Below are positions 1-50,462 of a DNA stretch of 50,462 bases, piece after piece. A program made the translations under genes and the position numbers. The notes below the pieces were generated by a model that was not told the origin of the DNA, searched no databases, and was given only the letters and a program-made list of their open reading frames with translations. The stretch lies in the IMG/VR virus record IMGVR_UViG_3300049437_000005; one strand, written 5' to 3'. Origin of the DNA: a virus. Position 1 is the stretch's first letter; each line of letters starts with the position of its first letter.

Positions 1-127
1 TTTGTAGTACGGCCCGTAATTAAGTTCCTCATCCCACTCGGTAACATGAAGAACCTTTTCTGATTTGACACCGTAAGTCACTAAGATATTCTCGCCTGGA
101 AGCCAGGCATCTCGACACCAGATTTTT
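1..127. repeat. Terminal exact direct repeat, copy 1 (identical to 50336..50462)
   Basis: Base-by-base comparison of the window start and end: tttgtagtacggcccgtaatt...caccagattttt matches over 127 nt. A length equal to a common assembler k-mer suggests circular-contig overlap rather than a biological repeat. Confidence 0.95.
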
Positions 128-806: not shown

Positions 807-2624
807 TTACCAGCCGTCATTGTCTTTCTTACGCTTCGCTTCCTCGCGTTGCTGATTCCTCCATGCGAGTGACCCATATGGAGCCTTCGGCTTCTCGGGT
901 TCCTTCGGCTTCGCGGTATTTCCTCCAATCAATTTCCACGCCAAGGCGTCGGCCATTGTTCGGTCGCCGTGATTGCTCTTTGCCCCGGATGGATCGGTCT
1001 TGTCTTGCGCCTTAGAGTGAATCGGGCAACCATCGGTCGCAAAAACGTATTCGAGGCAATCTTCCAACGATTCCTTGGATCGGTTAATGCACATCCCGCC
1101 CTCGACGATAGCCCTATATGCCGAGATGATCGCCCGTTTCGTTTCCCGCGTCTGCGCCACGCCAGGAATATCAGTCTGCTTCTTCGACAGCGATTCCTCG
1201 CTCATGCGAAGATAATAATTCGTGTAGCCGAGTTCGATGAGTTTGTCGCCGAACTGACGACCCGGCCCGCCGCTCTCCCAAATCAGCTTCGGATTTCCAA
1301 GCCATTTGGCGATTGCGTAAACTTGGACGGCGAACGGCTCGGGGCGAAGGTACGGATTGATATACTCCGCAATTTTCTCGCCGGTAACTTCGTTCCAGAA
1401 TTCAGCGCATGAATTCGACGCACCAGTTCCCGCTGAAATGTCACAACCGCCGACTAGTTTATGTTCGGGATTGATCGACGGTTTGTTGTTCTTATCAAGC
1501 AAGCACCACAATCGCAGCCGCCCGCCAGAATCTTCTCGAAACTCGGTCGGCTCGCCGGTCGTTAAGTCGTAATCCACGTCACCGACGCACTCAGGCGGGC
1601 GCGTGTCGCGCTTTATTACAACTTGAACCTTGTCCGAATCGAAATACTGCCCGCCGCTACCCTGATAGTCGATATCCAACTCGGTCGCAATCTCGCGCTT
1701 ACTTCCGGCCCGCTCGCATTCCTGATCGTACCAAGGCGAACGCAGCTTACCGTCGAGAATCGGCTTATAGTCTTGCGGATAATTCTCGGGATCGAGGACC
1801 TTCAGGTTTCCATCCTCGTCAGTCGTATAAAGACCCTTCGCCTTCTCTGGATGAATTGACCAATGGAAGCGAAGTTTTCGTATGTTGGTCTGACGTGTCG
1901 CATAGAATTCGTTGTTAGTTCCCGTATCAGGGTCGGGCGTCGAGTTGAAGATACGGCATTTCGTCGCATCGCGGGTCGCAGACTTGACTCTCGCACCATC
2001 TCGGACGGCTGCGAATTCGTCGAGCAGGATCGCAGTTCGCCGGTCGCCACGCGCGACGTTGGCCGTTGTCGATTCGCCGTCGATTACCGAACCGTTCTCC
2101 GGGTTCTCTACGTGCATCATTTTCCGATGCACTTCTGGATCGTATCCTCGCGGACGCAACCAAACCGGCATATTGTTTAGAAGGAAATCGAACTTCCAAA
2201 ACAGCGCCTTCGGATTGCCTGCCTTATCTACGTAATCTTCGACGCGGGAAACGTAGAGGAACGATTGCAGCGCCTTGAATCTCCAACACCATTTGGTCGC
2301 CGCAATACAAGCCCACGATGCCCCCATATCACGACTTTTCTCGACAAGAATATCGTGATGATTGATTGATTCGATAATTTCGATAATCGCCTCTTCCTGA
2401 AATGGATACAGGATGAAAGGCAACTTCGGGAACGGCTCGCATCTCGGATCGAACGTCCAGCCGAATCCGTTGATATAAAACAACGGGTCTTGAGAGCACG
2501 CATCGCGGATCGCCTCAGCGAATCCGATATCGTCGATCGCGCGACGATTCACCGCCGCACGCCAGTGTAGATTGGCGCGCACGTCTTTCGGTATTCTGTA
2601 ATTGAACGGAGTCGAGACTTTCAT
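807..2624 (-). CDS. terL: Terminase large subunit
   Basis: 605-aa ORF. Walker A-like EKSRDMGASW, Walker B-like AILLDEFA, and an N-terminal FYINGFGWTFDPR...LYPFQ pattern typical of phage large terminases. Its start overlaps the upstream stop (ATGA). Confidence 0.85.
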   Translation of the reverse strand: MKVSTPFNYRIPKDVRANLHWRAAVNRRAIDDIGFAEAIRDACSQDPLFYINGFGWTFDPRCEPFPKLPFILYPFQEEAIIEIIESINHHDILVEKSRDMGASWACIAATKWCWRFKALQSFLYVSRVEDYVDKAGNPKALFWKFDFLLNNMPVWLRPRGYDPEVHRKMMHVENPENGSVIDGESTTANVARGDRRTAILLDEFAAVRDGARVKSATRDATKCRIFNSTPDPDTGTNNEFYATRQTNIRKLRFHWSIHPEKAKGLYTTDEDGNLKVLDPENYPQDYKPILDGKLRSPWYDQECERAGSKREIATELDIDYQGSGGQYFDSDKVQVVIKRDTRPPECVGDVDYDLTTGEPTEFREDSGGRLRLWCLLDKNNKPSINPEHKLVGGCDISAGTGASNSCAEFWNEVTGEKIAEYINPYLRPEPFAVQVYAIAKWLGNPKLIWESGGPGRQFGDKLIELGYTNYYLRMSEESLSKKQTDIPGVAQTRETKRAIISAYRAIVEGGMCINRSKESLEDCLEYVFATDGCPIHSKAQDKTDPSGAKSNHGDRTMADALAWKLIGGNTAKPKEPEKPKAPYGSLAWRNQQREEAKRKKDNDGW

Positions 2625-3136
2625 TTAGCGAAGATTCCGCAAGCGTACCATGTTCCATTTTGGCCCAACGCCATCGCGTAGCCGTAGAATTCGCACTCGC
2701 CGTTCACCGCTGCCCAATGGCCGGAAGAGTATCGCCAGGAACGGTACATTTCGGCTGCGGCTGCTTCAGCAGATTGATTGGGCCAACTCTCGTTCGCCAC
2801 TTCAGCGAAGTCTCGACTTCCGGGTAAAGCGGCGCGGAGGGAAGCATACCGAAGGTTCCAACCCTGGTGGCCTTGCACACAAACTCGGGCCATGTAGTCT
2901 GCGTGTTGCTGCGCGTATCGTTGGAGATGTTCATTCGGTCTGCCGGATGATATGCTAAGAACGCCAATTCGTCTGCCGGTTTGTATGAGAATTTCATTTG
3001 GAGTAGGCGGAAGAGAAGGTTTGACGACGGGCGGCTTAATCGGGGCAACATCAGGGCGGGGTTGAGTTCGGTCGAGTAGCAGTAGTCCAGTGATAAGGAT
3101 GAGCAACGGCGGTATGGTCGATAGGATTTTCTTCAT
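2621..3136 (-). CDS. Exported CAP/SCP/PR1-like domain protein with N-terminal signal/anchor
   Basis: 171 aa. N-terminal MKKILSTIPPLLILITGLLLL hydrophobic segment and a Pro-rich linker. The C-terminal domain has HADYM...GHQGW...ESW...SSGHWAAV...YGYA...WYACGIF, resembling YkwD/CAP domains. Its stop overlaps the terL start. Confidence 0.6.
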   Translation of the reverse strand: MKKILSTIPPLLILITGLLLLDRTQPRPDVAPIKPPVVKPSLPPTPNEILIQTGRRIGVLSISSGRPNEHLQRYAQQHADYMARVCVQGHQGWNLRYASLRAALPGSRDFAEVANESWPNQSAEAAAAEMYRSWRYSSGHWAAVNGECEFYGYAMALGQNGTWYACGIFAK

Positions 3137-5555: not shown

Positions 5556-5834
5556 TTACTTACTGAGGGGAATTACAGTCGTTTCCATCGCCATTCCATC
5601 GGGGCCAATAATCAAGTACCGACTAGGCGCTTTGCTGCGCCTCTTCTCTTCTGCCCTATTCTCGCGTTCTACTCTCTCCCTGCGCGCTTGATCTTGCGTT
5701 CTAATCCATTGTTCGCCCCATTGCGCCTCTTGTTTCGCGCGATCATTCCTAGCGCGTTCTATCGCCTTATCATCCCTTGCCGATACTGGCCAGCAAACAA
5801 GACAGGCGACGATTGCGAACAGTAACCGTTTCAT
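5556..5834 (-). CDS. Small putative lipoprotein / secreted charged protein
   Basis: Internal ATG at 5834 is preceded by GGAGGG at 7 nt. The N-terminus MKRLLFAIVAC has a lipobox-like IVAC. The rest is a highly charged R/E-rich sequence. Confidence 0.5.
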   Translation of the reverse strand: MKRLLFAIVACLVCWPVSARDDKAIERARNDRAKQEAQWGEQWIRTQDQARRERVERENRAEEKRRSKAPSRYLIIGPDGMAMETTVIPLSK

Positions 5835-17731: not shown

Positions 17732-18619
17732 ATGAAGTATGTTGCTGCTGTGATTGCGTTGCTCTGTTTGCCGATGCTGGCGAGCGCAGGCGTTCCCGAT
17801 GATCTTCAGGATGTGAGCGTTACGATCAAGTCTGGAAACGCCCAAGGCTCGGGCAACCTCGTTACGCGGAAGATCGGCGACGACACGATTACCTTCGTTT
17901 GGACGGCGGCGCACGTCGTTGACAACCTACGCACTTCTCGCACGGTCGTTACGGCCAACGGCGCGACAAAAACCATTATCGAATACAAAGACGCGGAAAT
18001 CGTTCAAGAGCGCCAGCAAGACGGTCGCCGGGTCGGCGAAGTGAAGTACAACGCCAAGGTTATCAAGGTCAGCGATGCCGACTACGGCGAGGATTTGGCG
18101 CTGCTTATGGTTCGATGCAATGGCGCGTATCCGCTCTCGGCCAGTACGAAGTTTCATCTCGAAGAAGGCTACATCCCAGATATCGGCGTCGAGTTGGCCC
18201 ATTGCGGCAGCTTGCTCGGCCAGTTCGGAGCCAACAGCTATACGACCGGCGTTCTCTCACAGACCGGTCGCACGTTGCCGATGAAGGGCGCGAACGTCAA
18301 GACCTTCGATCAAGTGACGACCGTATCTTTCCCCGGCTCATCTGGCGGCGGTATGTACTTGAAGGCTGACGGGACATACATCGGAATGCTGACGCAAGGC
18401 GTCAATCAGCTTCAGGGCTTCAACTTCATTGTCCCGGTTCGCCGGATGAACGCATGGGCGAAGTCGGCCAAGATCGAATGGGCCATGAACCCGGATATCG
18501 AGATGCCGACGCTGGCCGAGATCGAAGCCATGCCAGTTGAGGAAGCCGCGACTATGATCGGAGGCGTCGGGTCGAATATGGACCCGGACGGATTCGACAT
18601 TCTCTCGTTTCTGTTCTAG
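17732..18619 (+). CDS. Secreted trypsin-like (S1/Trypsin_2-type) serine peptidase
   Basis: Signal peptide MKYVAAVIALLCLPMLASAG. Catalytic-triad contexts TAAHVV (His), EDLALL (Asp) and PGSSGGGMY (Ser). Confidence 0.7.
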   Translation: MKYVAAVIALLCLPMLASAGVPDDLQDVSVTIKSGNAQGSGNLVTRKIGDDTITFVWTAAHVVDNLRTSRTVVTANGATKTIIEYKDAEIVQERQQDGRRVGEVKYNAKVIKVSDADYGEDLALLMVRCNGAYPLSASTKFHLEEGYIPDIGVELAHCGSLLGQFGANSYTTGVLSQTGRTLPMKGANVKTFDQVTTVSFPGSSGGGMYLKADGTYIGMLTQGVNQLQGFNFIVPVRRMNAWAKSAKIEWAMNPDIEMPTLAEIEAMPVEEAATMIGGVGSNMDPDGFDILSFLF

Positions 18620-18656
18620 TTAGAGCGCGCTGTTGGCTACGACGTAACCAACTGAA

Positions 18657-18727
18657 TGATCGGTAGTGAAATGGTATCACTCCCGGCGAGAAGCTATGGA
18701 ATTGCGGGTTCGACTCCCGCCCGATCA
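18657..18727 (+). tRNA. tRNA-like element with canonical geometry but a degenerate anticodon stem-loop (possible pseudo-tRNA or non-decoding tRNA mimic)
   Basis: Acceptor TGATCGG/CCGATCA pairs 7 of 7. U8 and A14 are present. D-arm GTGA-AATGGTA-TCAC. T-arm GCGGG-TTCGACT-CCCGC. 5-nt variable loop. The anticodon arm CCCGG-CGAGAAG-CTATG pairs at only 3 of 5 positions and lacks U33. Confidence 0.45.
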
Positions 18728-18734
18728 TTTTATT

Positions 18735-20378
18735 ATGTTTCAACTTCGCCCATACCAACTCGAAGCAATCGACGCGCTGCACAAGCATATCTGCGAGAAG
18801 CAGACGAACCCTTGCGTAGTGCTTCCGACCGGCAGCGGAAAGTCTGTCGTCATGGCTGGCATGATCCAGCGTTGGAAAGAGCAGGCCCCTTGGGTGCGCG
18901 GTTGCGTTCTCGCTCACCGTAAAGAACTGGTACAGCAAAATGCAGACAAATTACGCACGGCAGTACGCAAAAATACAGACGCTCCGACTTACGGATTCGG
19001 ACAGGGAGATATTGGAGTGTTTAGCGCTGGACTTGGAAAGAGAGATTACGACTCTCCAATCCTTTTCGCGTCGATTGATTCCGTTTACAACAAAGCCGGT
19101 GATTTCCAGCCGTTCGATTTCCTTTTCGTCGATGAAGCTCACAGAATTCCTCCAAGCGGCGAAGGAAAATATCGAACGTTTATTGGGGAATGTAAACGCT
19201 TTAACCCGTCCATTCGTGTAATAGGTTGGACTGCTACTCCGTTCAGAATGGGATGCGGCGCAATCTGCCACAAAGACCATATCCTTAACGAAGTATGTTA
19301 CGACGCAAAGATTACCGACCTAATAGCGCAGGGATATCTCTGTAGCCTTCGCTCGAAGGTCGGCGAGACTCAGCCTGATCTGAAAGAAGTTCGCCGCAAT
19401 TCGGGCGGCGATTACATTATCGACTCACTAGCTGAAGCGACTAACAATGATCGAATTGTTTCTACGGCCATTGCCGAAGCCGTGCGAATTATGTCGGCGG
19501 AACAACGCCGCGCCGCCGTGTTTTTCTGCGTCGATATCGAACATTGCGAAAAAGTGTCCCGCGCTCTTAGGAGCTACGGAATCAACGCTCCGTACCTTAC
19601 CGGAAAAACGAGGCAATCAGACCGCGACCGACTAATTGCAGATTTCAAGACCGGCGCAGTTCGCGCCGTCTGTAACGTCAACGTCTTAACGGAGGGTTTC
19701 GATGCGCCACATATTGATACCGTCGTATTACTCCGGCCTACGCTATCGCCTGGGCTATTCTCGCAAATGGTCGGTAGAGGTTTACGCATTCACTCCTCTA
19801 AGTCGTACTGTCTTGTGTTGGATTTCGCTGGTTGCATTGAAGAACATGGTCCGATTGATTTGCTTGGAGGCGATAAAGTCGTCATGGCGACTTGTCAAGA
19901 GTGCCGCGAATCTTTCAGTCGAGCTATCCGCGTCTGCCCTGCTTGCGGCTGGGAGATTCCTAAGCAGGAAGTTGATCGACTTGAAGCCGTCGAGAAGGAG
20001 CGCAGGATGCACGGCGCGAAGGCGTCGAGCAAATCCATTCTTTCTTCGGAGCCTGAAACGCTGAAAGTCGATTCTGTTTACTTCGCCAGACACGCGAAAG
20101 AAGGATCGCCCGATTCACTTCGCGTTCAATACAGATGCGGACTTTCAATGTTTCGTGAATGGGTTTGCCTTGACCACACAGGCTTGGCGGGCCATAAGGC
20201 GCAGCAATGGTGGAAAACTCGATTCGGCGGAAGAGAGAGAGTAACGATGAGTGATGCGCTCGGAAATATGCTATTTCCTCAGCAACTCATCGAATGGACG
20301 AAAACAATCACGGTCAAGAAGAACGGAAAGTTCTTCGAGATCGTTGGATACAACAAGCCATTGCATGAGGCAACATGA
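18735..20378 (+). CDS. SF2 DEAD/DEAH-box (ResIII-type) DNA helicase with a C-terminal zinc ribbon
   Basis: LRPYQLEAI, LPTGSGKS (motif I), FVDEAHR (motif II), TATPFR (motif III), CQECRE...CPACG. Start taken at MFQLRPYQ, downstream of the tRNA-like element. Confidence 0.8.
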   Translation: MFQLRPYQLEAIDALHKHICEKQTNPCVVLPTGSGKSVVMAGMIQRWKEQAPWVRGCVLAHRKELVQQNADKLRTAVRKNTDAPTYGFGQGDIGVFSAGLGKRDYDSPILFASIDSVYNKAGDFQPFDFLFVDEAHRIPPSGEGKYRTFIGECKRFNPSIRVIGWTATPFRMGCGAICHKDHILNEVCYDAKITDLIAQGYLCSLRSKVGETQPDLKEVRRNSGGDYIIDSLAEATNNDRIVSTAIAEAVRIMSAEQRRAAVFFCVDIEHCEKVSRALRSYGINAPYLTGKTRQSDRDRLIADFKTGAVRAVCNVNVLTEGFDAPHIDTVVLLRPTLSPGLFSQMVGRGLRIHSSKSYCLVLDFAGCIEEHGPIDLLGGDKVVMATCQECRESFSRAIRVCPACGWEIPKQEVDRLEAVEKERRMHGAKASSKSILSSEPETLKVDSVYFARHAKEGSPDSLRVQYRCGLSMFREWVCLDHTGLAGHKAQQWWKTRFGGRERVTMSDALGNMLFPQQLIEWTKTITVKKNGKFFEIVGYNKPLHEAT

Positions 20379-25442: not shown

Positions 25443-26035
25443 TTACACGAATCTACCTCGATCTCGACGACGTTTTGAACTACCTAGCGCCATACGTGTT
25501 GAACTGCGTCGGCTGCCCAATAGGGGCGACAGACTACAACAGCTACCCAGGCGATGAAGTTGGCTACGATATCGTCGCGGCTGCTAACATGATGCACCCG
25601 ACGAAGGAATTCACAAAAGAAGAATTTTGGGGCGCAATCACTCGTAAGATATGGGCTGCTGCTCCAAGGTCCGAAGAATACTCCGATATTCTGCGACTTT
25701 GCTTCGACTCCGTTGGCGAAAGAAATATCCATATCCTAACGCGGGCGACAGACAATGCAGACTGCTACTCAGGTAAGAAGGACTGGATGGACCGCAACGT
25801 TCCTGGCGGTATGCGGCGTCAACATCTGATCGTGGGCGAGGATTGCAAGGAACTGCTCGCGCGACCTGATACGCTACTCATCGACGACAACGAGAAAAAC
25901 ATCTCCGCTTTTCGTAAGTCTGGTGGAATGGCTATCACTGTTCCGAGACCCTGGAACCGACTTCGAGGGTGCGCCAACACTTCTCTATATCTAAAAGGAA
26001 TGTTTGAAATCATCTTCGGACGGAGAGCGGCGTAA
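25439..26035 (+). CDS. HAD-family 5'(3')-deoxyribonucleotidase-like protein
   Basis: IYLDLDDVL (DxDxV/T motif I), KKDW and LLIDDN motifs. ATGA coupling. Confidence 0.6.
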   Translation: MITRIYLDLDDVLNYLAPYVLNCVGCPIGATDYNSYPGDEVGYDIVAAANMMHPTKEFTKEEFWGAITRKIWAAAPRSEEYSDILRLCFDSVGERNIHILTRATDNADCYSGKKDWMDRNVPGGMRRQHLIVGEDCKELLARPDTLLIDDNEKNISAFRKSGGMAITVPRPWNRLRGCANTSLYLKGMFEIIFGRRAA

Positions 26036-26343
26036 TGAGATCGAAGGAATGGCGAAAGCTATTGAAGTGGATACGTAGGCAGTACCCGATTGTCGGGACT
26101 GTTCACGTTTCTCGCAGGCCGGTCAAGAACGACGCTGGCAATACTGGTATCCGCGTCAAGCGAAGCGCCTGGACATTTTGGATTCACATTGACTCGAAGC
26201 AGGAATGGGCAGGGCAAGTCGATACGCTGCTTCACGAATGGTCGCATATTCGGGCCATTCAAGAAGCCTGCGACCATCTTGGAAGATGGGCAACCACATA
26301 CGGAGAAATCTACACCGAATGGACAACCTTCAACAATGATTAA
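26035..26343 (+). CDS. Small HExxH protein (putative zinc metallopeptidase-like)
   Basis: LLHEWSHIRAIQEACDH contains HExxH. 102 aa. Confidence 0.4.
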   Translation: MRSKEWRKLLKWIRRQYPIVGTVHVSRRPVKNDAGNTGIRVKRSAWTFWIHIDSKQEWAGQVDTLLHEWSHIRAIQEACDHLGRWATTYGEIYTEWTTFNND

Positions 26344-27094: not shown

Positions 27095-27317
27095 CTTTCC
27101 GCTTCGGCTTGATCGAAATATCGACTTCAACGCCAAGGCCCTCGGCAATCGCTTCTAGCGTACTTAGCTTTACGTCTTTGTAAATTCCGTTTGAGAACCG
27201 AGAGTAGGCAACAGTCGTAAGGCCAGCCGCCTCGGCGGCTTCGGCCTTTGTCATTTCGATCTGCTCTCTGTGCTTCTCGAACAATCTCTGCACTTGCTTA
27301 GCTAGGATGTTCTTCAT
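27078..27317 (-). CDS. XRE-family HTH regulator
   Basis: MTKAEAAEAAGLTTVAYSRFSNG...LSTLEAIAEGLG matches HTH_3. Its start overlaps the integrase stop (ATGA). Its 3' end overlaps the convergent MTase gene by 17 nt. Confidence 0.75.
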   Translation of the reverse strand: MKNILAKQVQRLFEKHREQIEMTKAEAAEAAGLTTVAYSRFSNGIYKDVKLSTLEAIAEGLGVEVDISIKPKRKVKRAS

Positions 27318-28291
27318 GTTGCGATCTCCTCTTCTTCATGTGTGGTTTTACCGAACAGCCAATCATGTACCCTATCGGCAAGTTTCTTCAGCCTCGGTAG
27401 CTTATCCAAGTGTCTTTTCGCATAAAATCTTGCTTGTATGCTTGATGGGGTGTGACCCATCGTTAAGTTAATCATCGTCTTGTCGCCCGATCTGTCAATT
27501 ACAGCCGAGTACGTATGCCGAAGCGAACCAATGCTGACGCCTTTTGTTCGGTATCCTATGTCGTCAAGCATTTTGCTGAATGCGTCAATTACCTTTCGGC
27601 CTTCTCCGTCTTTCGTATGCGGCTTTCCGTACCGGGTCAGGATGATCGTATGCTCGCTTTGGTTGTGGCATCGCCGGTAGTTGGATCGGTAGTCTAGAAT
27701 CGCGGCGACAGTCTCGGGCCAGAGTACCGCCATTCTGGCACGTCCATTCTTCACTCGCCGGAAGTCATGGTACGGAATCTTCGTATCGACGGTATGAACG
27801 TGGTCGAAGGTCAGTGCTATTGAATCTCCGGGGTAGAATCCGCAATTTATCCCCAACAGAATCGCAACCTTCATGGCCGGTTTCGCCCGCCGAAGAGACG
27901 CAAGTATCGCCTCGCGTTCAATGAATCGATCTGGGCTTTTCTTTTCCTGCTCGATCTCGATATCGTTGCTTCCTGGAGGATCAAATTCGCCGCCGTACCT
28001 TATGACATTACTAATGTATCCGCGTTTCTCGCCCCAATTAAACACTGATCTAACAGACATTATAGCATTGCGTCTTGTCTTTAATCGCCACCCAGTATCA
28101 TAAATCCGCTTTCGAATCGTGAGAAAAACTTCTGGGCCTACCGACTTTAACTTCACCCCTCTAATCGAAGGGATTTCCAGCACGGCATCTAGTCTGCTGT
28201 AGTCCTTGATGGTTCTTTGGCTGCGTTCTCCCATTGCAACCTTTTCTGTGATTGCAATACGATGTTTGTCAAACAAGTCCCCAATCGTCAT
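27314..28291 (-). CDS. int: Tyrosine recombinase / phage integrase
   Basis: 325 aa. An N-terminal SAM-like region and a C-terminal GSLRHTYS...MGHT...Y pattern. Adjacent to a tRNA 3' fragment. Confidence 0.8.
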   Translation of the reverse strand: MTIGDLFDKHRIAITEKVAMGERSQRTIKDYSRLDAVLEIPSIRGVKLKSVGPEVFLTIRKRIYDTGWRLKTRRNAIMSVRSVFNWGEKRGYISNVIRYGGEFDPPGSNDIEIEQEKKSPDRFIEREAILASLRRAKPAMKVAILLGINCGFYPGDSIALTFDHVHTVDTKIPYHDFRRVKNGRARMAVLWPETVAAILDYRSNYRRCHNQSEHTIILTRYGKPHTKDGEGRKVIDAFSKMLDDIGYRTKGVSIGSLRHTYSAVIDRSGDKTMINLTMGHTPSSIQARFYAKRHLDKLPRLKKLADRVHDWLFGKTTHEEEEIAT

Positions 28292-28395: not shown

Positions 28396-28432
28396 TGCGG
28401 ACGGTGGGACTTGAACCCACACCTAAACGGTT
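28396..28432 (-). other. attP candidate: 3' fragment of a class II (long variable arm, Leu-like) tRNA gene
   Basis: The minus strand reads ACCGTTTAGGT-GTGGG-TTCAAGT-CCCAC-CGTCCGC-A (variable arm, T-arm, 3' acceptor strand, discriminator). No matching 5' acceptor GCGGACG or anticodon arm lies upstream, so this is a fragment rather than a gene. Confidence 0.65.
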
Positions 28433-28547: not shown

Positions 28548-28580
28548 CAACAAAGAAGGCCGACCAAAGGGCGGTCGGCC
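28548..28580 (-). terminator. Rho-independent terminator ending the late/envelope operon
   Basis: The minus strand reads GGCCGACC-gcccttt-GGTCGGCC followed by TTCTTTGTT, 33 nt after the thioredoxin stop. Confidence 0.7.
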
Positions 28581-28612: not shown

Positions 28613-29110
28613 TTATGGAGTAAGCGCCGCGACGGCGTTCGGATCGTGCGTTCGGTTTTCCCCGCCGCCTGTGTGGATTACGAATGTGGGCACTGAGGTA
28701 ATCGCGTACTGCCGGGCGAGATCGGGCCGGGAGTCAATGTCAATCTCTTCGATGTTGATTCCTCGCTTACGGGCGGCGGCGATGGTCGGCTTAGCTCTCT
28801 GGCAAGGCCCGCACCACGTCGCAGTGAAGGCCAACACCCTCACAGGGGCGCAAGCTGGCGGCATAGGGCGATTGTCGCCCTGGCGCGCCGGAACACCGGT
28901 CTTACCGGGCAATCGAGGCTTGCATGGGCATGGAACAGGGCATGGCTGATCTGGCTCCGGCTCTACCTTGACGGCTGCGGGGACGGCTGGCTTGATAGTC
29001 TTCCTGTTTTTTGCGGCGCTATGTTCCTTCCATACATAGCCAACAACGAGCGCTGCGATAAGGAAAATTCCAGCAAAAAAAACAACACGATCTTCTTTCT
29101 TCTGGCCCAT
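28613..29110 (-). CDS. Membrane-anchored thioredoxin-fold protein (WCGPC active site)
   Basis: N-terminal MGQKKEDR plus the VVFFAGIFLIAALVVGYVW TM segment. A Pro/Cys-rich linker (PCPVPCPCKP). Thioredoxin motif FTATWCGPCQ and the cis-Pro context SVPTF. Confidence 0.8.
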   Translation of the reverse strand: MGQKKEDRVVFFAGIFLIAALVVGYVWKEHSAAKNRKTIKPAVPAAVKVEPEPDQPCPVPCPCKPRLPGKTGVPARQGDNRPMPPACAPVRVLAFTATWCGPCQRAKPTIAAARKRGINIEEIDIDSRPDLARQYAITSVPTFVIHTGGGENRTHDPNAVAALTP

Positions 29111-29120
29111 ACATCAACTC

Positions 29121-29531
29121 CTAATTCGACTGTAGGATGGTGCGTAACTTTTCGTGAATCTTTTCGCAGTCTTTCGACACATCGACGCCGACGCCTTTTC
29201 CGAACGCCTCAATCGCATTGGCAAAGTTATGCCCGGCATCGCAGAGGTTGGCGATATTGACGGCGGCGGCGCTTGACGCCTTTGCGTGAGAAGCGAGTAT
29301 GCTGGCGTTGTCGGCGCTTGACTTCCCGACGCCTTCAAGAAAAGCGTCGAGTCGATCCATGAGTTTGCCGCCTAACTTGTATGCGATAAAGCCTAGCCCT
29401 AGAACGACGACGCCTACCAATACGAAGCAAAGCACGATAAAGAACCATCCGGGGCCGAGATGCCTCGCCAGTTCGGCAACATCGACGTTCGTATTGGTTG
29501 TGGCTTCAGCGAACAGGATAGACTGGATCAT
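29121..29531 (-). CDS. Single-pass membrane protein (holin-like candidate)
   Basis: One long TM segment GWFFIVLCFVLVGVVVLGLGFIAY. 136 aa. Lies in the envelope cassette. Confidence 0.45.
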   Translation of the reverse strand: MIQSILFAEATTNTNVDVAELARHLGPGWFFIVLCFVLVGVVVLGLGFIAYKLGGKLMDRLDAFLEGVGKSSADNASILASHAKASSAAAVNIANLCDAGHNFANAIEAFGKGVGVDVSKDCEKIHEKLRTILQSN

Positions 29532-29534
29532 GGT

Positions 29535-30290
29535 TTACCTCGAATAAGTCACTTCGCGAACAACGTAGGCATCGCGGAAGATTTTCTGCCTTCCAAGAAG
29601 CAGCATATCGTCGTCTGGTTGCCAAGAGTTTCGTTCCCAAATACCGAATTCGTTGCCATGCTTCTGCAACTCTTCGGCATCCATCGCGTGCGCCATGAAG
29701 TTGACGGCGTTCCACACGGCATCGCCATTCAGCAACGCCGAAACTGTCTCGTCGTACATATCGACAGAGCCAAGACGATAGAATTCAAGCGGTACGCAAT
29801 CCTTTGCAGCTTCCTGCCAGCCAGGCTTGAAGCGATTGGGATTGAATTCGTACTGCGGGATGAAATCGCGGGTTGCCATGCCGTTCTTGACAACGAATTC
29901 CATCGCGTCGTCGAGCGTACTGCCCTCGTCGGCCCAACCAAACGTACCTTTGATTGATTCTGGCCCGAGTGTTCGGTACGGCAGATTCATCTTGGATCGC
30001 GCGCATTCAAGATGCTGCGCCAGCGAGTACCGCCAGCAAATCGGATGCGGCCCTTGATTGTGGTGAATCGGATTAAACCGATCCTTGCGTTGACGTGCAA
30101 ATTTGCCGATCATCGCATCATAACGAGAAGCCCACTTGCTTCTCGGAATTAACTCGACAACTTCCGCGTAGCTCGGTCCAGCGTAGAGTTGCTTCGCCTG
30201 CGAACGCGGCAGCAGGCCACAAAGCCGCGAGTCGCGGGCCTGAATCTTCTCGGCAAACTCGGACCAATTTCCATCGTGAATCGTAATCAT
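29535..30290 (-). CDS. Papain-like (clan CA, C1-like) cysteine peptidase
   Basis: NQGPHPICWRYS has papain Q19-C25 spacing. AHAM gives the His context. ERNSWQPD matches the papain N175-S-W context. No signal peptide is seen. Confidence 0.6.
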   Translation of the reverse strand: MITIHDGNWSEFAEKIQARDSRLCGLLPRSQAKQLYAGPSYAEVVELIPRSKWASRYDAMIGKFARQRKDRFNPIHHNQGPHPICWRYSLAQHLECARSKMNLPYRTLGPESIKGTFGWADEGSTLDDAMEFVVKNGMATRDFIPQYEFNPNRFKPGWQEAAKDCVPLEFYRLGSVDMYDETVSALLNGDAVWNAVNFMAHAMDAEELQKHGNEFGIWERNSWQPDDDMLLLGRQKIFRDAYVVREVTYSR

Positions 30291-30730
30291 TGAAGCGCCC
30301 CCAATGCTGCTGGTTCGTTCGCGGGAAGAGGAATAGCCGTCACCTTCCCGTTGCCATGTCGATAGGCAAGCGCCGGGTAGTCTTTGACTTTCAAGGACGC
30401 TTCAGCGAGATACGGAACGAGATAGGCGGGCGGATTACCGTCACGATCAACCACGTCTTTGTCGATACAGCCCAAGAATGTTCCGCCGCTTTGTTCGATT
30501 ACGTCGATGAACGAACCAGAGGCAAGAATCGCGGCCTGCCCGTCGGGCAGCTTCGACCTCATCTTCGTTTCCTCGATAATACAAACCGTCAATGGACCGC
30601 TCTCGATCCAGTACGACGGAGTGAGCCAAACCGGAGCGTCAGGTAGTTTCGGTAGTCTGAAGTCGCCGGAACGGAGCAGCAGCCCGATTCCAAGCAGCAA
30701 CAGCGCAAGTGGTGCGTAAGCCTTACTCAT
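30287..30730 (-). CDS. Signal-anchored/exported hypothetical protein
   Basis: N-terminal APLALLLLGIGLLL hydrophobic segment. ATGA-coupled to the peptidase gene. Confidence 0.5.
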   Translation of the reverse strand: MSKAYAPLALLLLGIGLLLRSGDFRLPKLPDAPVWLTPSYWIESGPLTVCIIEETKMRSKLPDGQAAILASGSFIDVIEQSGGTFLGCIDKDVVDRDGNPPAYLVPYLAEASLKVKDYPALAYRHGNGKVTAIPLPANEPAALGALQ

Positions 30731-30737
30731 ACTTCCC

Positions 30738-31016
30738 TCACGCTGCTGGTTTCACGGAATCGTCAGCGAGTTTCGCCAGCGAAACCCTCACGTCTGCGAC
30801 CTGCGCGGCCAACTCCGAATCGCCGCGTTTCTTGGCAATCGCCGTGATCGCGAAGCAAGCCGACATACCTGCGACGATATCTGCGTAGTCGTCGATCTTG
30901 TTCGCTGCCGCCTCTACCTTAGCGCCAGCAAACGATACGCCCTTGCTTTTCAAGTAATTGATACCGATAGCAGCAAGCCACAAGCCACCAGCCAGAATCA
31001 GAATCCAAGACAACAT
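30738..31016 (-). CDS. Small membrane protein (holin/antiholin-like candidate)
   Basis: TM SWILILAGGLWLAAIGINYL plus a second hydrophobic stretch. GAAGGGAGAA RBS. Confidence 0.5.
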   Translation of the reverse strand: MLSWILILAGGLWLAAIGINYLKSKGVSFAGAKVEAAANKIDDYADIVAGMSACFAITAIAKKRGDSELAAQVADVRVSLAKLADDSVKPAA

Positions 31017-31028
31017 ACTTTCTCCCTT

Positions 31029-31196
31029 CTAAATGAGTTTCAAGGCGCGCTCTCTTGTTTCGCGAAGTATCTTTAGCCCCGCCAAGAATCTCTTCTCAGC
31101 GTCGGGGCTTTCGTTGATTCTGTTTACGAGAAAAGTCCTGAAGAATTCCGACGTAGCAGACTCGTAGGCAGACTGAATTACTTCTGCGTCGGACAT
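31029..31196 (-). CDS. 55-aa hypothetical protein (below ORF-track cutoff)
   Basis: ATG at 31196 is preceded by GAGGGG at 6 nt. Translation MSDAEVIQSAYESATSEFFRTFLVNRINESPDAEKRFLAGLKILRETRERALKLI. Confidence 0.4.
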   Translation of the reverse strand: MSDAEVIQSAYESATSEFFRTFLVNRINESPDAEKRFLAGLKILRETRERALKLI

Positions 31197-31432
31197 GGCT
31201 GCCCCTCGTCCCGAAGGATCGGGAATATGCGACCGCGGCGCTGGTCGTCGTCGCCATGTTCCTGTTGCTGCCGGTCACGTAGCGGGAACAATCGCGGACG
31301 GTCACAGCCCTTGCTTGCTACGACAACACCTAAAAGGAAACAAACAAGGCATAGCCAAACTGTAGGCGGAAGCGCCTTCAGGACTGCCCATATTACGGAA
31401 ACAACTGAACCGAGAATAGTAAGAATAGCCAC
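31178..31432 (-). CDS. Two-TM small membrane protein (class II holin-like candidate)
   Basis: TM segments ILTILGSVVSVIWAVL and VWLCLVCFLLGVVVA, with a charged C-terminus. Confidence 0.5.
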   Translation of the reverse strand: MAILTILGSVVSVIWAVLKALPPTVWLCLVCFLLGVVVASKGCDRPRLFPLRDRQQQEHGDDDQRRGRIFPILRDEGQPCPTQK

Positions 31433-49375: not shown

Positions 49376-50462
49376 CTAAGAACCTGACCCCTGCGGAGAA
49401 GCGCCGCCAGGATCGCCGCCCATGAGAAGTTGCGTCATTGCAGCCGTCGATCCTTGCCGCGTCATTCCGGGGCGACCGACGCGGTTGTAAGTACGAGTCG
49501 TATTCGACGGCATCGGAAGCGACATATTCCCTCCGCCAGCAGCAGGTTCGGCGGCTTGCTCTGGGAACATGACGATATCGATCACGTCTGGCGGAAGGCC
49601 GGAATACTTCGCGGCAGCCTTGATAATCTTCTCGGCATCGACGGTTCCTCCGCCTTGCTGAATTAGCGGAGCCATAGGAACGACAACGCGCTCTACGAAC
49701 GCGAGCAGTTTTGCGAGCAGTAGTTGCGGCGAGTCGTCTTGCAGGGAGTAAATGTCGATCTTCAGATGGTATTGACCGAACTTGCCTTTCTTCGCGTTTC
49801 GATTCCATTCAACGGGAATCGAATCTTCGACGCCAGGAATAGGCTTCTGAAGCGTGCGCTCCTTAATCGGGTCAGTCCATTCGTAGTAAGCCAGCGCCTT
49901 AAACACCCCTTTCATACAACTAACTGTACGGTCGGCCATATCTCGAAGTTGAGCGCCAGCCGCCTCGCCAAGCAGCTTCTCTTGGCCGACAGTTTGGGCC
50001 ATTAACCCAAGCCCGCCGAGAGAATCGAGGTTACCCATGAAGTACGATGCGAGATCGCGGGTCTGCAAGTAGAAGGCCAGACTCGTCGGATCGATTCCGC
50101 CAGCCTTTAGTTCCTTCGGCTCGGTTCCAGTCCATTTAACGCCTTCGCCGTCGCCCGCCTTCTTGAAGTCGTCAACGGCCTGATCGTCGTTACCGCCGAA
50201 GCCGAGAACTTTCTTCTGCGATTTCGCACCGTCGCCGAGTTTACGGAACACTTCATTTCCTAGCTCATGCAAATCACGCCACAACGCTACGGGTGGAAGC
50301 GGCAGAAGATTACCAACAACCTCGCCGTAGCCGAGTTTGTAGTACGGCCCGTAATTAAGTTCCTCATCCCACTCGGTAACATGAAGAACCTTTTCTGATT
50401 TGACACCGTAAGTCACTAAGATATTCTCGCCTGGAAGCCAGGCATCTCGACACCAGATTTTT
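49376..50462 (-). CDS. Portal protein, C-terminal part (continues upstream through the overlap into 783..1)
   Basis: The ORF-track entry 49376..50416 is in frame with the minus-strand frame of 1..783 after collapsing the 127-bp overlap. Confidence 0.6.
   Translation of the reverse strand, partial: KIWCRDAWLPGENILVTYGVKSEKVLHVTEWDEELNYGPYYKLGYGEVVGNLLPLPPVALWRDLHELGNEVFRKLGDGAKSQKKVLGFGGNDDQAVDDFKKAGDGEGVKWTGTEPKELKAGGIDPTSLAFYLQTRDLASYFMGNLDSLGGLGLMAQTVGQEKLLGEAAGAQLRDMADRTVSCMKGVFKALAYYEWTDPIKERTLQKPIPGVEDSIPVEWNRNAKKGKFGQYHLKIDIYSLQDDSPQLLLAKLLAFVERVVVPMAPLIQQGGGTVDAEKIIKAAAKYSGLPPDVIDIVMFPEQAAEPAAGGGNMSLPMPSNTTRTYNRVGRPGMTRQGSTAAMTQLLMGGDPGGASPQGSGS
50336..50462. repeat. Terminal exact direct repeat, copy 2 (identical to 1..127)
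   Basis: Same comparison as copy 1. Confidence 0.95.

Follow-up and report, generated by a model that had tools for sequence, protein, structure and literature searches.

A virus genome in IMG/VR (record IMGVR_UViG_3300049437_000005) carries at the end of its late genes a compact set of seven small minus-strand genes built around a papain-family cysteine peptidase and an exported partner protein. The whole stretch of DNA analysed, called the window below (50,462 nts), has an exact overlap of 127 bp between its ends and is thus a complete genome, circular and 50,335 bp long. In the reading that we hold with moderate confidence, the seven genes form a lysis (envelope-breaching) cassette of a temperate, podovirus-like phage with a genome of 50.3 kb. 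The effector would be a leaderless C1 peptidase which takes the usual place of the endolysin at the end of the late genes and docks on a partner exported beforehand. Partner and peptidase constitute a two-gene core module widespread in uncultured phages, and a thioredoxin encoded in the same cassette would serve as a clade-specific redox accessory. If this is true, many uncultured phages have the same arrangement, and lysis by a papain-type protease may be a mode of host bursting that has so far escaped description.

Table 1. Position and main characteristics of the cassette genes and of the features that follow them in the window
Feature	Position	Strand	Description
g84	31178..31432	-	84 aa; hydrophobic helices at 2-18 and 24-40, then a charged tail
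g55	31029..31196	-	55-aa soluble ORF of doubtful status
g92	30738..31016	-	92 aa; two hydrophobic segments and a charged C-tail
g147	30287..30730	-	N-terminal signal/anchor and conserved C-terminal domain of ~105 aa; partner of the peptidase
g251	29535..30290	-	251 aa; leaderless papain-family peptidase (MEROPS C1, clan CA)
g136	29121..29531	-	single-pass membrane protein, TM 30-46; helical C-terminal domain with conserved LCDAGH
g165	28613..29110	-	165-aa membrane-tethered thioredoxin; TM 9-25, Pro/Cys-rich hinge, TrxA-type domain
Intrinsic-terminator-like hairpin	28558..28580	-	closes the late operon
tRNA-Leu 3' fragment	28397-28425		beyond the terminator
Integrase	27314-28291		phrog_1 match at 3.9e-20; beyond the terminator

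All seven ORFs of the initial annotation are present with unchanged coordinates (Table 1), tightly packed behind the gene of a 1477-aa protein. The gaps between them range from -19 to +49 nts, and Shine-Dalgarno-like purine runs precede most of the ORFs. The cassette has the orientation of the virion genes, is packed against them and shares with them one strong terminator, a hairpin with a 9-bp stem (7 GC pairs) and the T-run TTCTTTGTTG, located 33 nts past the thioredoxin stop codon. Its GC content is that of the rest of the genome, and no promoter-like site above chance was detected within it. The data support the view that the cassette belongs to the late virion operon, whose 3' end it forms, and behaves like a lysis cassette. 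The genes are real and syntenic: six of the seven ORFs are kept in order in the related phage contigs L001-L004, with protein identities of 35-66 %. Elsewhere in this genome, most of which carries no annotation, exported enzymes are encoded as well, namely a CAP-like and a trypsin-like protein.

Sequence comparison and structure prediction identify g251 as a divergent papain-family peptidase. Profile, Pfam and Foldseek searches thus narrow the clan-CA assignment made initially to family C1, and the enzyme is neither of the NlpC/P60 type, a possibility that had been raised, nor a CHAP peptidase. It displays the papain motifs Q79-x5-C85-W86, H201 and N221-S-W; of these catalytic residues, Q79 and C85 show no variation among 140 family members, in which H201 and N221 are conserved in at least 90 %. 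The family profile retrieves procerain (1.3e-17) and cathepsin K (5e-17) from the PDB, and half of the relatives (70/140) match Pfam Peptidase_C1. The AF2 model of g251, the one protein of the genome covered by structure prediction, has a pLDDT of 92.9 and finds procathepsin K/B and xylellain as best Foldseek matches. The N-terminal ~75 aa resemble a propeptide, no signal peptide is present and the structural disulfides of papain are all missing. With 672 clusters at 50 % identity (E <= 1e-3) and an intein placed exactly at the catalytic Cys in several members, the family has the marks of a phage gene that is conserved and matters functionally. In some relatives one secreted chain unites a signal peptide (or lipobox) with Ig-like domains and a C1 domain, and in P0109 a lipoprotein is fused directly to C1; these exported single-chain versions argue that the enzyme works outside the cytoplasm. 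A partner-like stretch gives only a weak signal in such chains (E about 1e-3, search of 17 sequences). Phage proteins that are structural neighbours include the C1-fold A0A6J5MXS7 (“Peptidoglycan binding-like”) and A0A8S5SPG9 (“Copper amine oxidase”), both known by their UniProt names alone, and these names point to wall-binding modules.

The constant companion of the peptidase is g147, not the thioredoxin. According to an HMM of the g147 domain, the partner gene lies directly upstream of the peptidase gene in 40 of 45 phage loci. The two genes are translationally coupled: the g147 stop overlaps the g251 start (ATGA), and the 4-nt overlap is common to 18 of the 33 non-redundant pairs. They also differ consistently in their export signals. 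A hydrophobic N-terminus, corresponding to a Sec or lipoprotein signal, occurs in 31/33 non-redundant partners and in 0/33 peptidases, so that an export signal is missing from the enzyme at all 33 loci. In the window, one N-terminal hydrophobic segment agrees with the earlier description of g147 as signal-anchored, and none was computed for g251. Q25, P79, L95 and P96 are invariant in the partner-domain alignment; the domain has no match in Pfam or the PDB.

That g165 is a thioredoxin with WCGPC behind a Pro/Cys-rich linker proved to be correct. The motif occupies residues 99-103 (W99-C-G-P-C103), followed by the cis-Pro motif VPT, and the protein matches Pfam Thioredoxin PF00085 at 5.5e-13 and PDB thioredoxins at about 1e-10. 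At the CxxC motif, the orthologues of L002-L004 carry CKPC, CGPC and CSPC. The linker reads CPVPCPC (57-63), and this CPxPCPC hinge is conserved. Among relatives from outside, the nearest (P0263-P0265, 53-56 % identity) are lipoproteins whose linker is Pro-rich, and L001, of the same clade as g165, has the lipobox IASC, so the anchor alternates between lipobox and TM. As its closest outside relatives are lipoproteins, g165, with its one N-terminal hydrophobic segment, is most likely extracytoplasmic. The “N-in” topology assigned initially draws support from this homology, although the flank charges (N +1, C +4) do not favour a C-out orientation. The proposed general partnership with the peptidase does not hold: the thioredoxin is found at only 4/45 peptidase loci (the window and L002-L004; L001 is probably cut by its contig end), and close thioredoxin relatives also occur in a contig that lacks the peptidase. 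Its absence from about 90 % of the module loci means that it is not essential to the mechanism of the family. Within the thioredoxin-bearing clade, Cys24 in the pro-like N-terminal segment of the peptidase is invariant (8/8), versus 16 % in the wider family, a pattern compatible with, though no proof of, a thiol switch specific to this clade.

The surroundings of the module, up to 1.5 kb away, show a 3.3-fold enrichment in small membrane proteins (18 % versus 6 %, Fisher p = 3e-5), in a test that rests on crude ORF calls and related loci. The “holin-like” label given to g84 is doubtful. Its sole conserved part is the N-terminus with its two hydrophobic segments (residues 1-58), which shares 41-48 % identity with the N-terminal part of proteins of 171-200 aa in L002-L004; the C-terminal part of these proteins has weak staphylococcal-nuclease-like (SNase) matches (Pfam E = 6e-4 and 0.017), and the window keeps no trace of the SNase-like domain. 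The protein is a membrane anchor, and a holin function is no more than possible. The best holin/pinholin-like candidate, a role assigned from its features, would be g92; the proteins encoded at this site in L002-L004 share 54-66 % identity with it. The membrane nature of g92 was recognised initially, but there are two hydrophobic segments (1-17 and a weaker, Ala/Gly-rich one at 45-61) where one had been seen. For g136, one segment confirms the single-TM protein described before; it is 35-61 % identical to its positional counterparts in L001-L004, and its flank charges are N -1 and C +2. Neither g92 nor g136 has a family match. Lastly, g55 overlaps g84 by 19 nts, has neither a homologue in the related loci nor a Pfam or PHROGs family match, and may be no gene.

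The absence of a recognisable endolysin, noted at the outset, stands for the complete circular genome. Pfam and PHROGs searches, which covered nearly every ORF from 90 aa upwards, the 1477-aa protein included, gave no lysozyme, amidase, transglycosylase, M15/M23 or NlpC/CHAP domain. Unannotated ORFs may still contain a strongly diverged muralytic fold. As to the reported lack of a spanin lipoprotein, there is no lipobox ORF within the cassette, and no cassette protein matches holin or spanin families in Pfam or PHROGs. Moreover, no muralytic Pfam family recurs among 136 proteins neighbouring the module or appears on genes called within +-10 kb in ten module contexts. Neither cultured phages nor the literature searched yielded a comparable system.

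The lysis hypothesis of the initial annotation is therefore retained in part, with its cysteine peptidase (now C1), its exported thioredoxin and the lack of a muralytic domain, but without the general thioredoxin partnership and the holin label of g84. We infer the lysis role, the order of events, the docking, the substrate and the thioredoxin target as follows. The partner g147 would be secreted early and anchored on the periplasmic face, and g251 would build up in the reducing cytoplasm, possibly kept inactive by its propeptide-like N-terminal 75 residues. Permeabilisation of the inner membrane by g92, perhaps together with g84 and g136, would let the peptidase enter the periplasm and dock on g147; the lack of an export signal at 33/33 loci fits such a release at lysis. 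The enzyme would then cleave peptide bonds on which the cohesion of the wall depends, possibly in peptidoglycan stem peptides or cross-links, or else in proteins tethering the outer membrane to the wall. To our knowledge no C1-family enzyme cuts peptidoglycan, and none was found in the literature searched. In the thioredoxin clade only, the hinge-tethered periplasmic thioredoxin would most plausibly keep the catalytic Cys85 and Cys24 reduced despite the oxidising periplasm; alternatively, it may reduce envelope disulfides.

Two other explanations keep lysis and distribute the tasks differently. An unlikely but substantial one places a divergent canonical muralytic enzyme elsewhere in the genome and makes the C1 peptidase an accessory, comparable to mycobacteriophage LysB, that cuts outer-membrane or surface-layer tether proteins whose disulfides are opened by the thioredoxin. 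C1 enzymes are proteases of ordinary L-peptide bonds, as illustrated by Cwp84 acting on S-layer precursors, a hidden muralytic fold is conceivable in a largely unannotated genome, and without a detectable spanin another outer-membrane solution is needed. Such an enzyme is nevertheless neither seen in this genome nor recurrent beside the module in other phages, and the peptidoglycan-binding labels on some C1-fold phage proteins also speak against this explanation. Rather improbable is the idea that peptidase and partner are an endolysin equivalent that works without the thioredoxin, which would form with g136 a separate spanin-like outer-membrane step, thiol-disulfide exchange driving or licensing the complex; g136 would be the helical member in the inner membrane, and the Pro-rich-tethered or lipoprotein member would come second. 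Spanins depend on intermolecular disulfides, the order g136-thioredoxin is conserved in L001-L004, the thioredoxin is missing from 41/45 peptidase loci, and its anchor switches between lipobox and TM with the CPxPCPC hinge preserved. In addition, L051, which has no C1 module, encodes a thioredoxin lipoprotein with a Pro-rich linker right behind a 132-aa protein that has a coiled coil and a TM at its N-terminus. However, this protein and g136 lack sequence similarity, the thioredoxin of the window has no lipobox and hence no lipid anchoring to the outer membrane, the flank charges of g136 suggest that its C-terminal domain may be cytoplasmic, and no spanin family is matched.

The remaining explanations do without lysis. 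A role of the cassette in remodelling the envelope, during infection or in the lysogen, is quite unlikely. It could consist in the exclusion of superinfecting phages, the destruction of receptors or the lysogenic conversion that had been offered as an alternative, and would rely on export of the protease system, on a reductase in the periplasm and, in relatives, on a nuclease held at the membrane. In its favour, attP and the integrase adjoin the cassette in the window and L002, many components are membrane or periplasmic proteins, relatives have on their 2-TM anchor an SNase-like domain well suited to degrading DNA that enters the cell, and the genome encodes further exported enzymes, CAP-like and trypsin-like, outside the cassette. 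Against lysogenic conversion, the cassette does not keep its place next to attP, as it lacks a neighbouring integrase in L003, and the core module resides inside structural gene blocks in phage contigs of 70-220 kb. The late-operon organisation described above (orientation, packing, shared terminator, no promoter-like site above chance), the unremarkable GC content and the leaderless peptidase weigh in the same direction. A point against the lysis reading is that in L013, L050 and L049 the module lies between head, adaptor and tail genes, not at an operon end, a position that P2-like phages also use for lysis genes. A role in morphogenesis or within the virion, with the enzyme processing capsid or ejection proteins (the 1477-aa protein, for instance) or being ejected to act on the envelope at entry, is highly improbable. 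The peptidase does adjoin the giant virion protein in the window and L014, is flanked by head genes and tail genes in L013 and L050, is leaderless and has the propeptide-like N-terminus typical of regulated proteases. Yet a coupled partner with a Sec or lipoprotein signal (31/33) and the secreted fusions are incompatible with cytoplasmic virion assembly, and the prohead proteases that we know of belong to other families (S78, U35, S49, S80).

Read as a lysis cassette with a C1 effector, the locus resembles holin-endolysin-spanin cassettes of the lambda S/R/Rz/Rz1 type, in which small membrane proteins accompany one soluble leaderless enzyme at the end of or inside the late operon, and the enzyme would likewise reach the periplasm upon membrane permeabilisation. 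It differs in using a C1 peptidase instead of a muramidase, transglycosylase, amidase or M15/M23/NlpC/CHAP peptidase, in its obligatory exported partner gene and periplasmic thioredoxin, and in having no recognisable holin or spanin family member. CHAP and NlpC/P60 endolysins (CHAPk of LysK, PlyCA of PlyC) are also clan-CA Cys-His enzymes that phages use against the wall, and PlyC splits catalysis and targeting over two gene products; g251, in contrast, has the C1 Gln-Cys-His-Asn tetrad, the NSW motif, a pro-like N-terminus, cathepsin matches and a different topology, and its partner, unlike PlyCB, is exported separately through Sec. Prokaryotic papain-family enzymes with pro-regions are exemplified by Cwp84 and by xylellain, which is among the best structural matches and whose N-terminal pro-region covers the active site, but these are cellular enzymes outside a phage lysis context and without a coupled exported partner. 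Baculovirus V-CATH, a virus-encoded C1 papain-family enzyme co-expressed with the chitinase ChiA, is made late as a latent, partner-dependent pro-form and degrades host structures for progeny release; it comes from a eukaryotic virus, is ER-retained and acts on tissue proteins, and no homology between the partners is implied. The thioredoxin recalls TlpA/ResA/CcmG-type and lipoprotein thioredoxins, WCxxC folds facing the periplasm on an N-terminal TM or lipid, except that its domain is short and TrxA-like (Pfam Thioredoxin, not Redoxin/AhpC-TSA), phage-encoded and placed behind a CPxPCPC hinge in a late/lysis operon. Control of a lysis enzyme by the periplasmic redox state has a precedent in the SAR endolysin Lyz of phage P1, whose catalytic cysteine is caged by a disulfide; Lyz, a lysozyme, uses its SAR domain to rearrange a disulfide of its own, whereas here, by analogy, a separate thioredoxin gene would act.

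The window is a complete circular genome of 50,335 bp, as follows from the exact 127-bp repeat at its two ends. Besides the genes listed in the table, it encodes DUF2793 tail fibres, a Prim-Pol, a helicase, a methylase and an SU10-type adaptor, which suggests a podovirus-like particle. All seven ORFs that the initial annotation placed in the cassette were recovered on the minus strand with the same boundaries. Named here by their length in amino acids (g84, g55, g92, g147, g251, g136 and g165), they come after the ORF for the 1477-aa giant virion protein with spacings of -19 to +49 nt; Shine-Dalgarno-like sequences precede most of them. The order of six of the seven is kept in four related phage contigs (L001-L004, 35-66 % identity), in which the 55-aa ORF g55 has no conserved counterpart.

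Features of the window, with noteworthy loci in related and more distant phage contigs
Sequence	Coordinates (strand)	Feature	Remarks
Window	1-127, 50336-50462	Terminal repeat	Exact, 127 bp
Window	807-2624	Terminase	phrog_5989
Window	2621-3136 (-)	171-aa exported protein	Adjoins terminase
Window	5556-5834 (-)	Lipobox-like ORF (MKRLLFAIVAC...)	Alone between divergent gene blocks
Window	17732-18619 (+)	295-aa protein with signal peptide	Within replication module
Window	18656-18729 (+)	tRNA-Ser (anticodon AGA)	ARAGORN
Window	18666-20378	Longest helicase ORF	5' end overlapped by tRNA-Ser
Window	26035-26343 (+)	102-aa ORF, HExxH motif (LLHEWSHI)	No Pfam or PHROG match
Window	27314-28291	Tyrosine integrase	Beyond cassette terminator
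Window	28397-28425	attP core	29 nt identical to T-arm and acceptor 3' end of tRNA-Leu(TAA); beyond terminator
Window	28580-28558	Terminator-like hairpin	9-bp GC-rich stem and T-run, 33 nt past last cassette ORF
Window	28613-29110 (-)	g165, thioredoxin	Cassette
Window	29535-30290 (-)	g251, C1 peptidase	Cassette
Window	30287-30730 (-)	g147, exported partner	Cassette
L002	8564-9079	First cassette gene	2-TM anchor and Cys-rich SNase-like domain
L003	8603-9205	First cassette gene	As in L002
L004	8778-9311	First cassette gene	As in L002
L005	10870-11352	Small protein beside module
L010	8992-9345	Small protein beside module
L011	10814-11008, 11583-11795	Small proteins beside module
L013	8636-8938	Small protein beside module
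L014	8533-8975	Small protein beside module
L048	6621-8450	Peptidase homologue with intein	Hint/homing endonuclease at catalytic Cys
L051	5426-8360	Thioredoxin lipoprotein cluster	Five genes

On its family alignment and modelled fold, g251 is a member of peptidase family C1 (the papain family, clan CA) with a two-lobed papain fold and predicted catalytic activity. Used as a single query, it matched nothing in Pfam, PHROGs or the PDB. A profile from its eight close relatives retrieved 672 clusters (50 % identity), 267 of them at E <= 1e-10. Q79 and C85 are invariant among 140 aligned family members, with H201 and N221 conserved in at least 90 %; in a second alignment, of 107 members, there is no variation at W86, H201 or N221 either. 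The protein thus carries the papain signature, a Gln-Cys-His-Asn tetrad in papain order with Q-x5-C-W and N-S-W-like motifs. Against the PDB, the family profile finds procerain (1.3e-17), cathepsin K (5e-17), ficins and chymopapain, with E-values ranging from 1e-17 to 1e-15, and 70 of the 140 relatives match PF00112 (Peptidase_C1) individually (best E = 1.1e-13). None of the structural disulfides of papain is conserved in the family, whose sole universal cysteine is C85.

A reliable AF2 model needed the 107-sequence alignment (pLDDT 92.9, pTM 0.92), the eight close homologues alone giving a pLDDT of 34. The top structural matches of this model in the PDB (Foldseek) are zymogens, namely procathepsin K (E = 5e-9, TM 0.60), procathepsin B and xylellain; mature cathepsins and cruzain score TMt 0.62-0.65. 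The zymogens align over 274-301 columns and the mature enzymes over only 212-220, a difference which points to a propeptide-like position for the ~75 conserved residues at the N-terminus of g251. In a comparison with predicted viral structures, "Peptidase C1A" proteins from uncultured Caudovirales match best, and two C1-fold phage proteins bear UniProt names that suggest wall-binding modules ("Peptidoglycan binding-like" and, for an N-domain of that type, "Copper amine oxidase"). Being a matter of names, these are the sole and indirect hints of an action on peptidoglycan. Tetrad, family profile and modelled fold therefore bear out the papain-like clan-CA peptidase first read from the sequence. 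The NlpC/P60 endopeptidase considered as an alternative at that stage found no counterpart: g251 has no profile or fold match to C40 or C51 (NlpC/P60, CHAP) and no NlpC or CHAP match in Pfam, its sequence and structure matches being all to C1.

Some homologues of the peptidase are interrupted. An intein of the Hint/homing-endonuclease type lies directly before the catalytic Cys in P0011, P0026, P0039, P0041, P0131 and P0146, and likewise in a homologue on contig L048. The junctions read ...C|FPxGTLIRM...VHN|CW..., with the catalytic Cys as the +1 nucleophile. We know of no inteins described in a lysis-type peptidase.

The closest associate of the peptidase is g147, whose stop codon overlaps the g251 start (ATGA). 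An HMM built from the C-terminal ~105 residues of g147 was applied to 45 loci, comprising the window, ten contigs found via protein identity and 34 IMG/VR loci, and in 40 of them the gene directly upstream of the peptidase encodes a partner homologue. Among the 33 pairs from non-redundant loci, 18 share the 4-nt overlap. A strongly hydrophobic N-terminus (Sec signal, lipobox or anchor) is present in 31 of the 33 partners and in none of the 33 peptidases, which supports the signal-anchored nature proposed for g147 at the outset. The longer partners carry an extra Ig-like region and a Pro-rich linker. Furthermore, some relatives are single secreted chains that combine a signal peptide or lipobox with He_PIG or TIG domains and a C1 domain, and P0109 is a lipoprotein directly fused to C1. 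Taken together, the upstream position of the partner, the restriction of the signal to it and the secreted fusions argue for a conserved two-gene unit, an exported partner and a leaderless C1 peptidase, both of which would work outside the cytoplasm. Weak colinear matches between the partner domain and the long secreted C1 relatives (E about 1e-3 in a 17-sequence database) are suggestive of a "Rosetta stone" fusion of partner and C1, but do not prove it. The partner domain has no relative in Pfam or the PDB. It was also compared with thioredoxins as a possible CxxC-less version of their fold, which hhalign did not support (probability 0.4 % against a thioredoxin alignment).

The last cassette gene encodes a TrxA-type thioredoxin. 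Residues 88-165 of g165 form a domain with WCGPC and cis-Pro motifs that matches PF00085 (5.5e-13) and thioredoxins in the PDB (about 1e-10), and in the alignment with E. coli TrxA W12, C13, P15, C16 and P54-T55 are invariant. These results uphold the WCGPC thioredoxin behind a Pro/Cys-rich linker recognised in the initial annotation. Ahead of the domain there is one N-terminal TM segment followed by a Pro-rich hinge with CPVPCPC, a motif type kept in L002-L004. The charges flanking the TM segment (N +1, C +4) count against export of the C-terminus. Several features speak for export, namely the TM segment itself, the conserved Cys-rich hinge, the closest homologues from beyond the clade (P0263-P0265, 53-56 % identity), which are lipoproteins whose linker is also rich in Pro, and the canonical lipobox of the truncated L001 orthologue, so that the thioredoxin domain is probably periplasmic.

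The proposed link between peptidase and thioredoxin held in part. A thioredoxin is present in only four of the 45 peptidase loci, and a close relative of g165 occurs in L051, a contig without the C1 module, downstream of an N-terminally anchored coiled-coil protein. The thioredoxin is thus a clade-specific accessory, outside the core mechanism of the peptidase family. Within the clade, all eight close homologues of g251 have Cys24 in the pro-like segment, against a mere 16 % of the wider family, a correlation that favours a redox link between the two proteins there. The thioredoxin lipoprotein of L051 is clustered with a weak Peptidase_C92 candidate (E = 0.01), a second lipoprotein, an exported protein anchored at its C-terminus, and the coiled-coil protein, and may represent a second kind of cassette combining a cysteine peptidase with a thioredoxin. 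Two of its neighbours had been considered cysteine peptidases by motif; one is backed by the sub-threshold C92 match and the other by none, and neither assignment is relied on here.

The other conserved cassette proteins are small and have hydrophobic segments. The ORF g84 corresponds to just the 2-TM N-terminus of proteins of 171-200 aa in L002-L004, in which the anchor is followed by a Cys-rich domain with weak Pfam SNase matches (E = 6e-4 and 0.017). No remnant of this domain was found in the window, which, to judge from these relatives, has lost it. With two hydrophobic segments and a charged tail, g92 appears to be a better holin candidate than g84. Both fit holins in size and TM pattern, yet neither they nor g136, which spans the membrane once and has the conserved motif LCDAGH, match any holin or spanin family in Pfam or PHROGs. 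No similarity was detected between g136 and the L051 coiled-coil protein.

Does such a cassette serve lysis? Small membrane proteins are 3.3-fold enriched within 1.5 kb of the module (18 % vs 6 %, p = 3e-5), a figure that rests on crude gene calls and related loci, and in distant phages the module is repeatedly flanked by a 2-TM protein and by small proteins that have a signal peptide and an Arg-rich C-terminus. The late-operon position of the cassette counts for lysis, and the location of the module between head and tail genes in some phages counts against it, where the peptidase could rather be a virion protease. The cassette might also be devoted to envelope remodelling or superinfection exclusion, and here again its late-operon position weighs on the side of lysis. 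A third rival makes the peptidase an accessory to an undetected endolysin. Such a fold may hide among window ORFs that Pfam and PHROGs do not recognise, and we know of no C1 enzyme that cuts peptidoglycan. Nevertheless, neither collection revealed a lysozyme, transglycosylase, amidase or M15/M23/NlpC/CHAP domain in the cassette or anywhere in the complete genome, in agreement with the first reading of the sequence. Muralytic domains are equally missing from the called genes of ten module contexts, and no recurrent muralytic Pfam family occurs among 136 module-neighbour proteins in the 25 of 58 families listed.

It could further be argued that the thioredoxin and g136 together provide a spanin-like outer-membrane step. 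In none of the frames does a lipobox ORF lie within or close to the cassette, in line with the lack of a spanin lipoprotein remarked on earlier. Lysogenic conversion, initially suggested by the neighbouring attP, is unlikely because the L003 cassette occurs without an integrase and no autonomous promoter signal is apparent: five promoter-like sites were found in the cassette region vs 4.7 expected after shuffling. Nor does the GC content (0.52-0.53, the same as in the rest of the genome) mark the cassette as a moron.

The small proteins beside the module in distant phages (see table) are of three recurring kinds: one in which a signal peptide and paired Cys are combined with an amphipathic, Arg-rich C-terminus (perhaps disruptin-like), a conserved 2-TM protein of 70-80 aa, and one of ~100 aa with the hydrophobic end 'W..LL.FL..LP.IL.LI'. 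In the IMG/VR loci (alignment A7), two module neighbours match the caspase domain Peptidase_C14 (best E = 5e-19); the others are mostly capsid, head-tail and tail proteins.

For the window, we propose a lysis cassette in which a C1 peptidase acts on an exported partner, a mechanism to which, as a whole, we give an even chance. The partner g147 would be exported and anchored while g251 builds up in the cytoplasm, possibly in a latent form. Once cassette membrane proteins had permeabilised the inner membrane, g251 would enter the periplasm, dock on its partner and cleave either peptide links of the wall or wall-tethering proteins. The thioredoxin of this clade, itself tethered, would then shield or unmask the catalytic thiol, or reduce envelope disulfides. 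A bolder version appears improbable to us, namely a proteolytic, redox-gated lysis that replaces both endolysin and spanin. A papain-family zymogen would leave the cytoplasm and be captured by the pre-exported docking protein, and the periplasmic thioredoxin would switch it on, e.g., by detaching the catalytic Cys85 from Cys24, the cysteine of the pro-segment that is specific to this clade, or would unlock disulfide-bonded wall or outer-membrane proteins for cleavage.

Other exported proteins are encoded elsewhere in the genome. The 171-aa protein next to the terminase combines a signal anchor at its N-terminus with a Pro-rich linker and a weakly matching CAP/SCP (PR-1-like) domain (Pfam E = 0.0064, sub-threshold), and so resembles g165 in its succession of anchor, linker and domain. 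The 295-aa protein in the replication module contains trypsin-like triad motifs (TAAHV, DLALL, GSSGG) and would be a second exported protease; it has no Pfam match and matches only phrog_11383 (unknown function, 4.7e-8). The only lipobox-like ORF of the genome encodes a small, highly charged product that could be a moron or exclusion lipoprotein. Finally, the overlap with the tRNA-Ser gene indicates that the true helicase start is probably downstream of 18666.

Clues to the host are weak. In 185,579 species genomes the attP 28-mer occurs in only four alphaproteobacterial MAGs (Hyphomonadaceae, Amaricoccus and one unclassified), where it matches tRNA-Leu genes over no more than the T-arm and acceptor stem. 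Fibres with DUF2793 occur widely in Alphaproteobacteria, and together with the attP core they hint at an alphaproteobacterial host. The sample accessions lead to a study of a landfill. The terminase relatives, about 30 % identical, are uninformative in this respect, and no integration junction was found in metagenome contigs. A profile search of 185,579 representative genomes returned no prophage with the peptidase. Likewise, tblastn searches of 50,697 GenBank phage records gave no match to three members of the peptidase family and no relatives of the 1477-aa protein.

The folds of the components are known. Their combination, i.e., a C1 peptidase in the position of an endolysin, an exported partner and a thioredoxin in a lysis operon, turned up neither in cultured phages nor in the literature searched, which yielded nothing relevant on C1/papain-type endolysins or on thioredoxin in lysis cassettes. 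To our knowledge, the established phage lysis enzymes all come from a short list of muralytic families; the sole candidate for a lysis enzyme here belongs, by its sequence, to a large phage-specific papain-type C1 family of about 670 clusters. If this peptidase is a lysis effector, it would account for "endolysin-less" uncultured phages and be a source of fresh scaffolds for enzybiotics. No other lysis cassette known to us has a redox component dedicated to it, and the thioredoxin would be the first. Compared with known systems, such an effector would add a new catalytic class to phage lysis and a new two-component logic, in which a leaderless enzyme meets a partner that has been exported beforehand.
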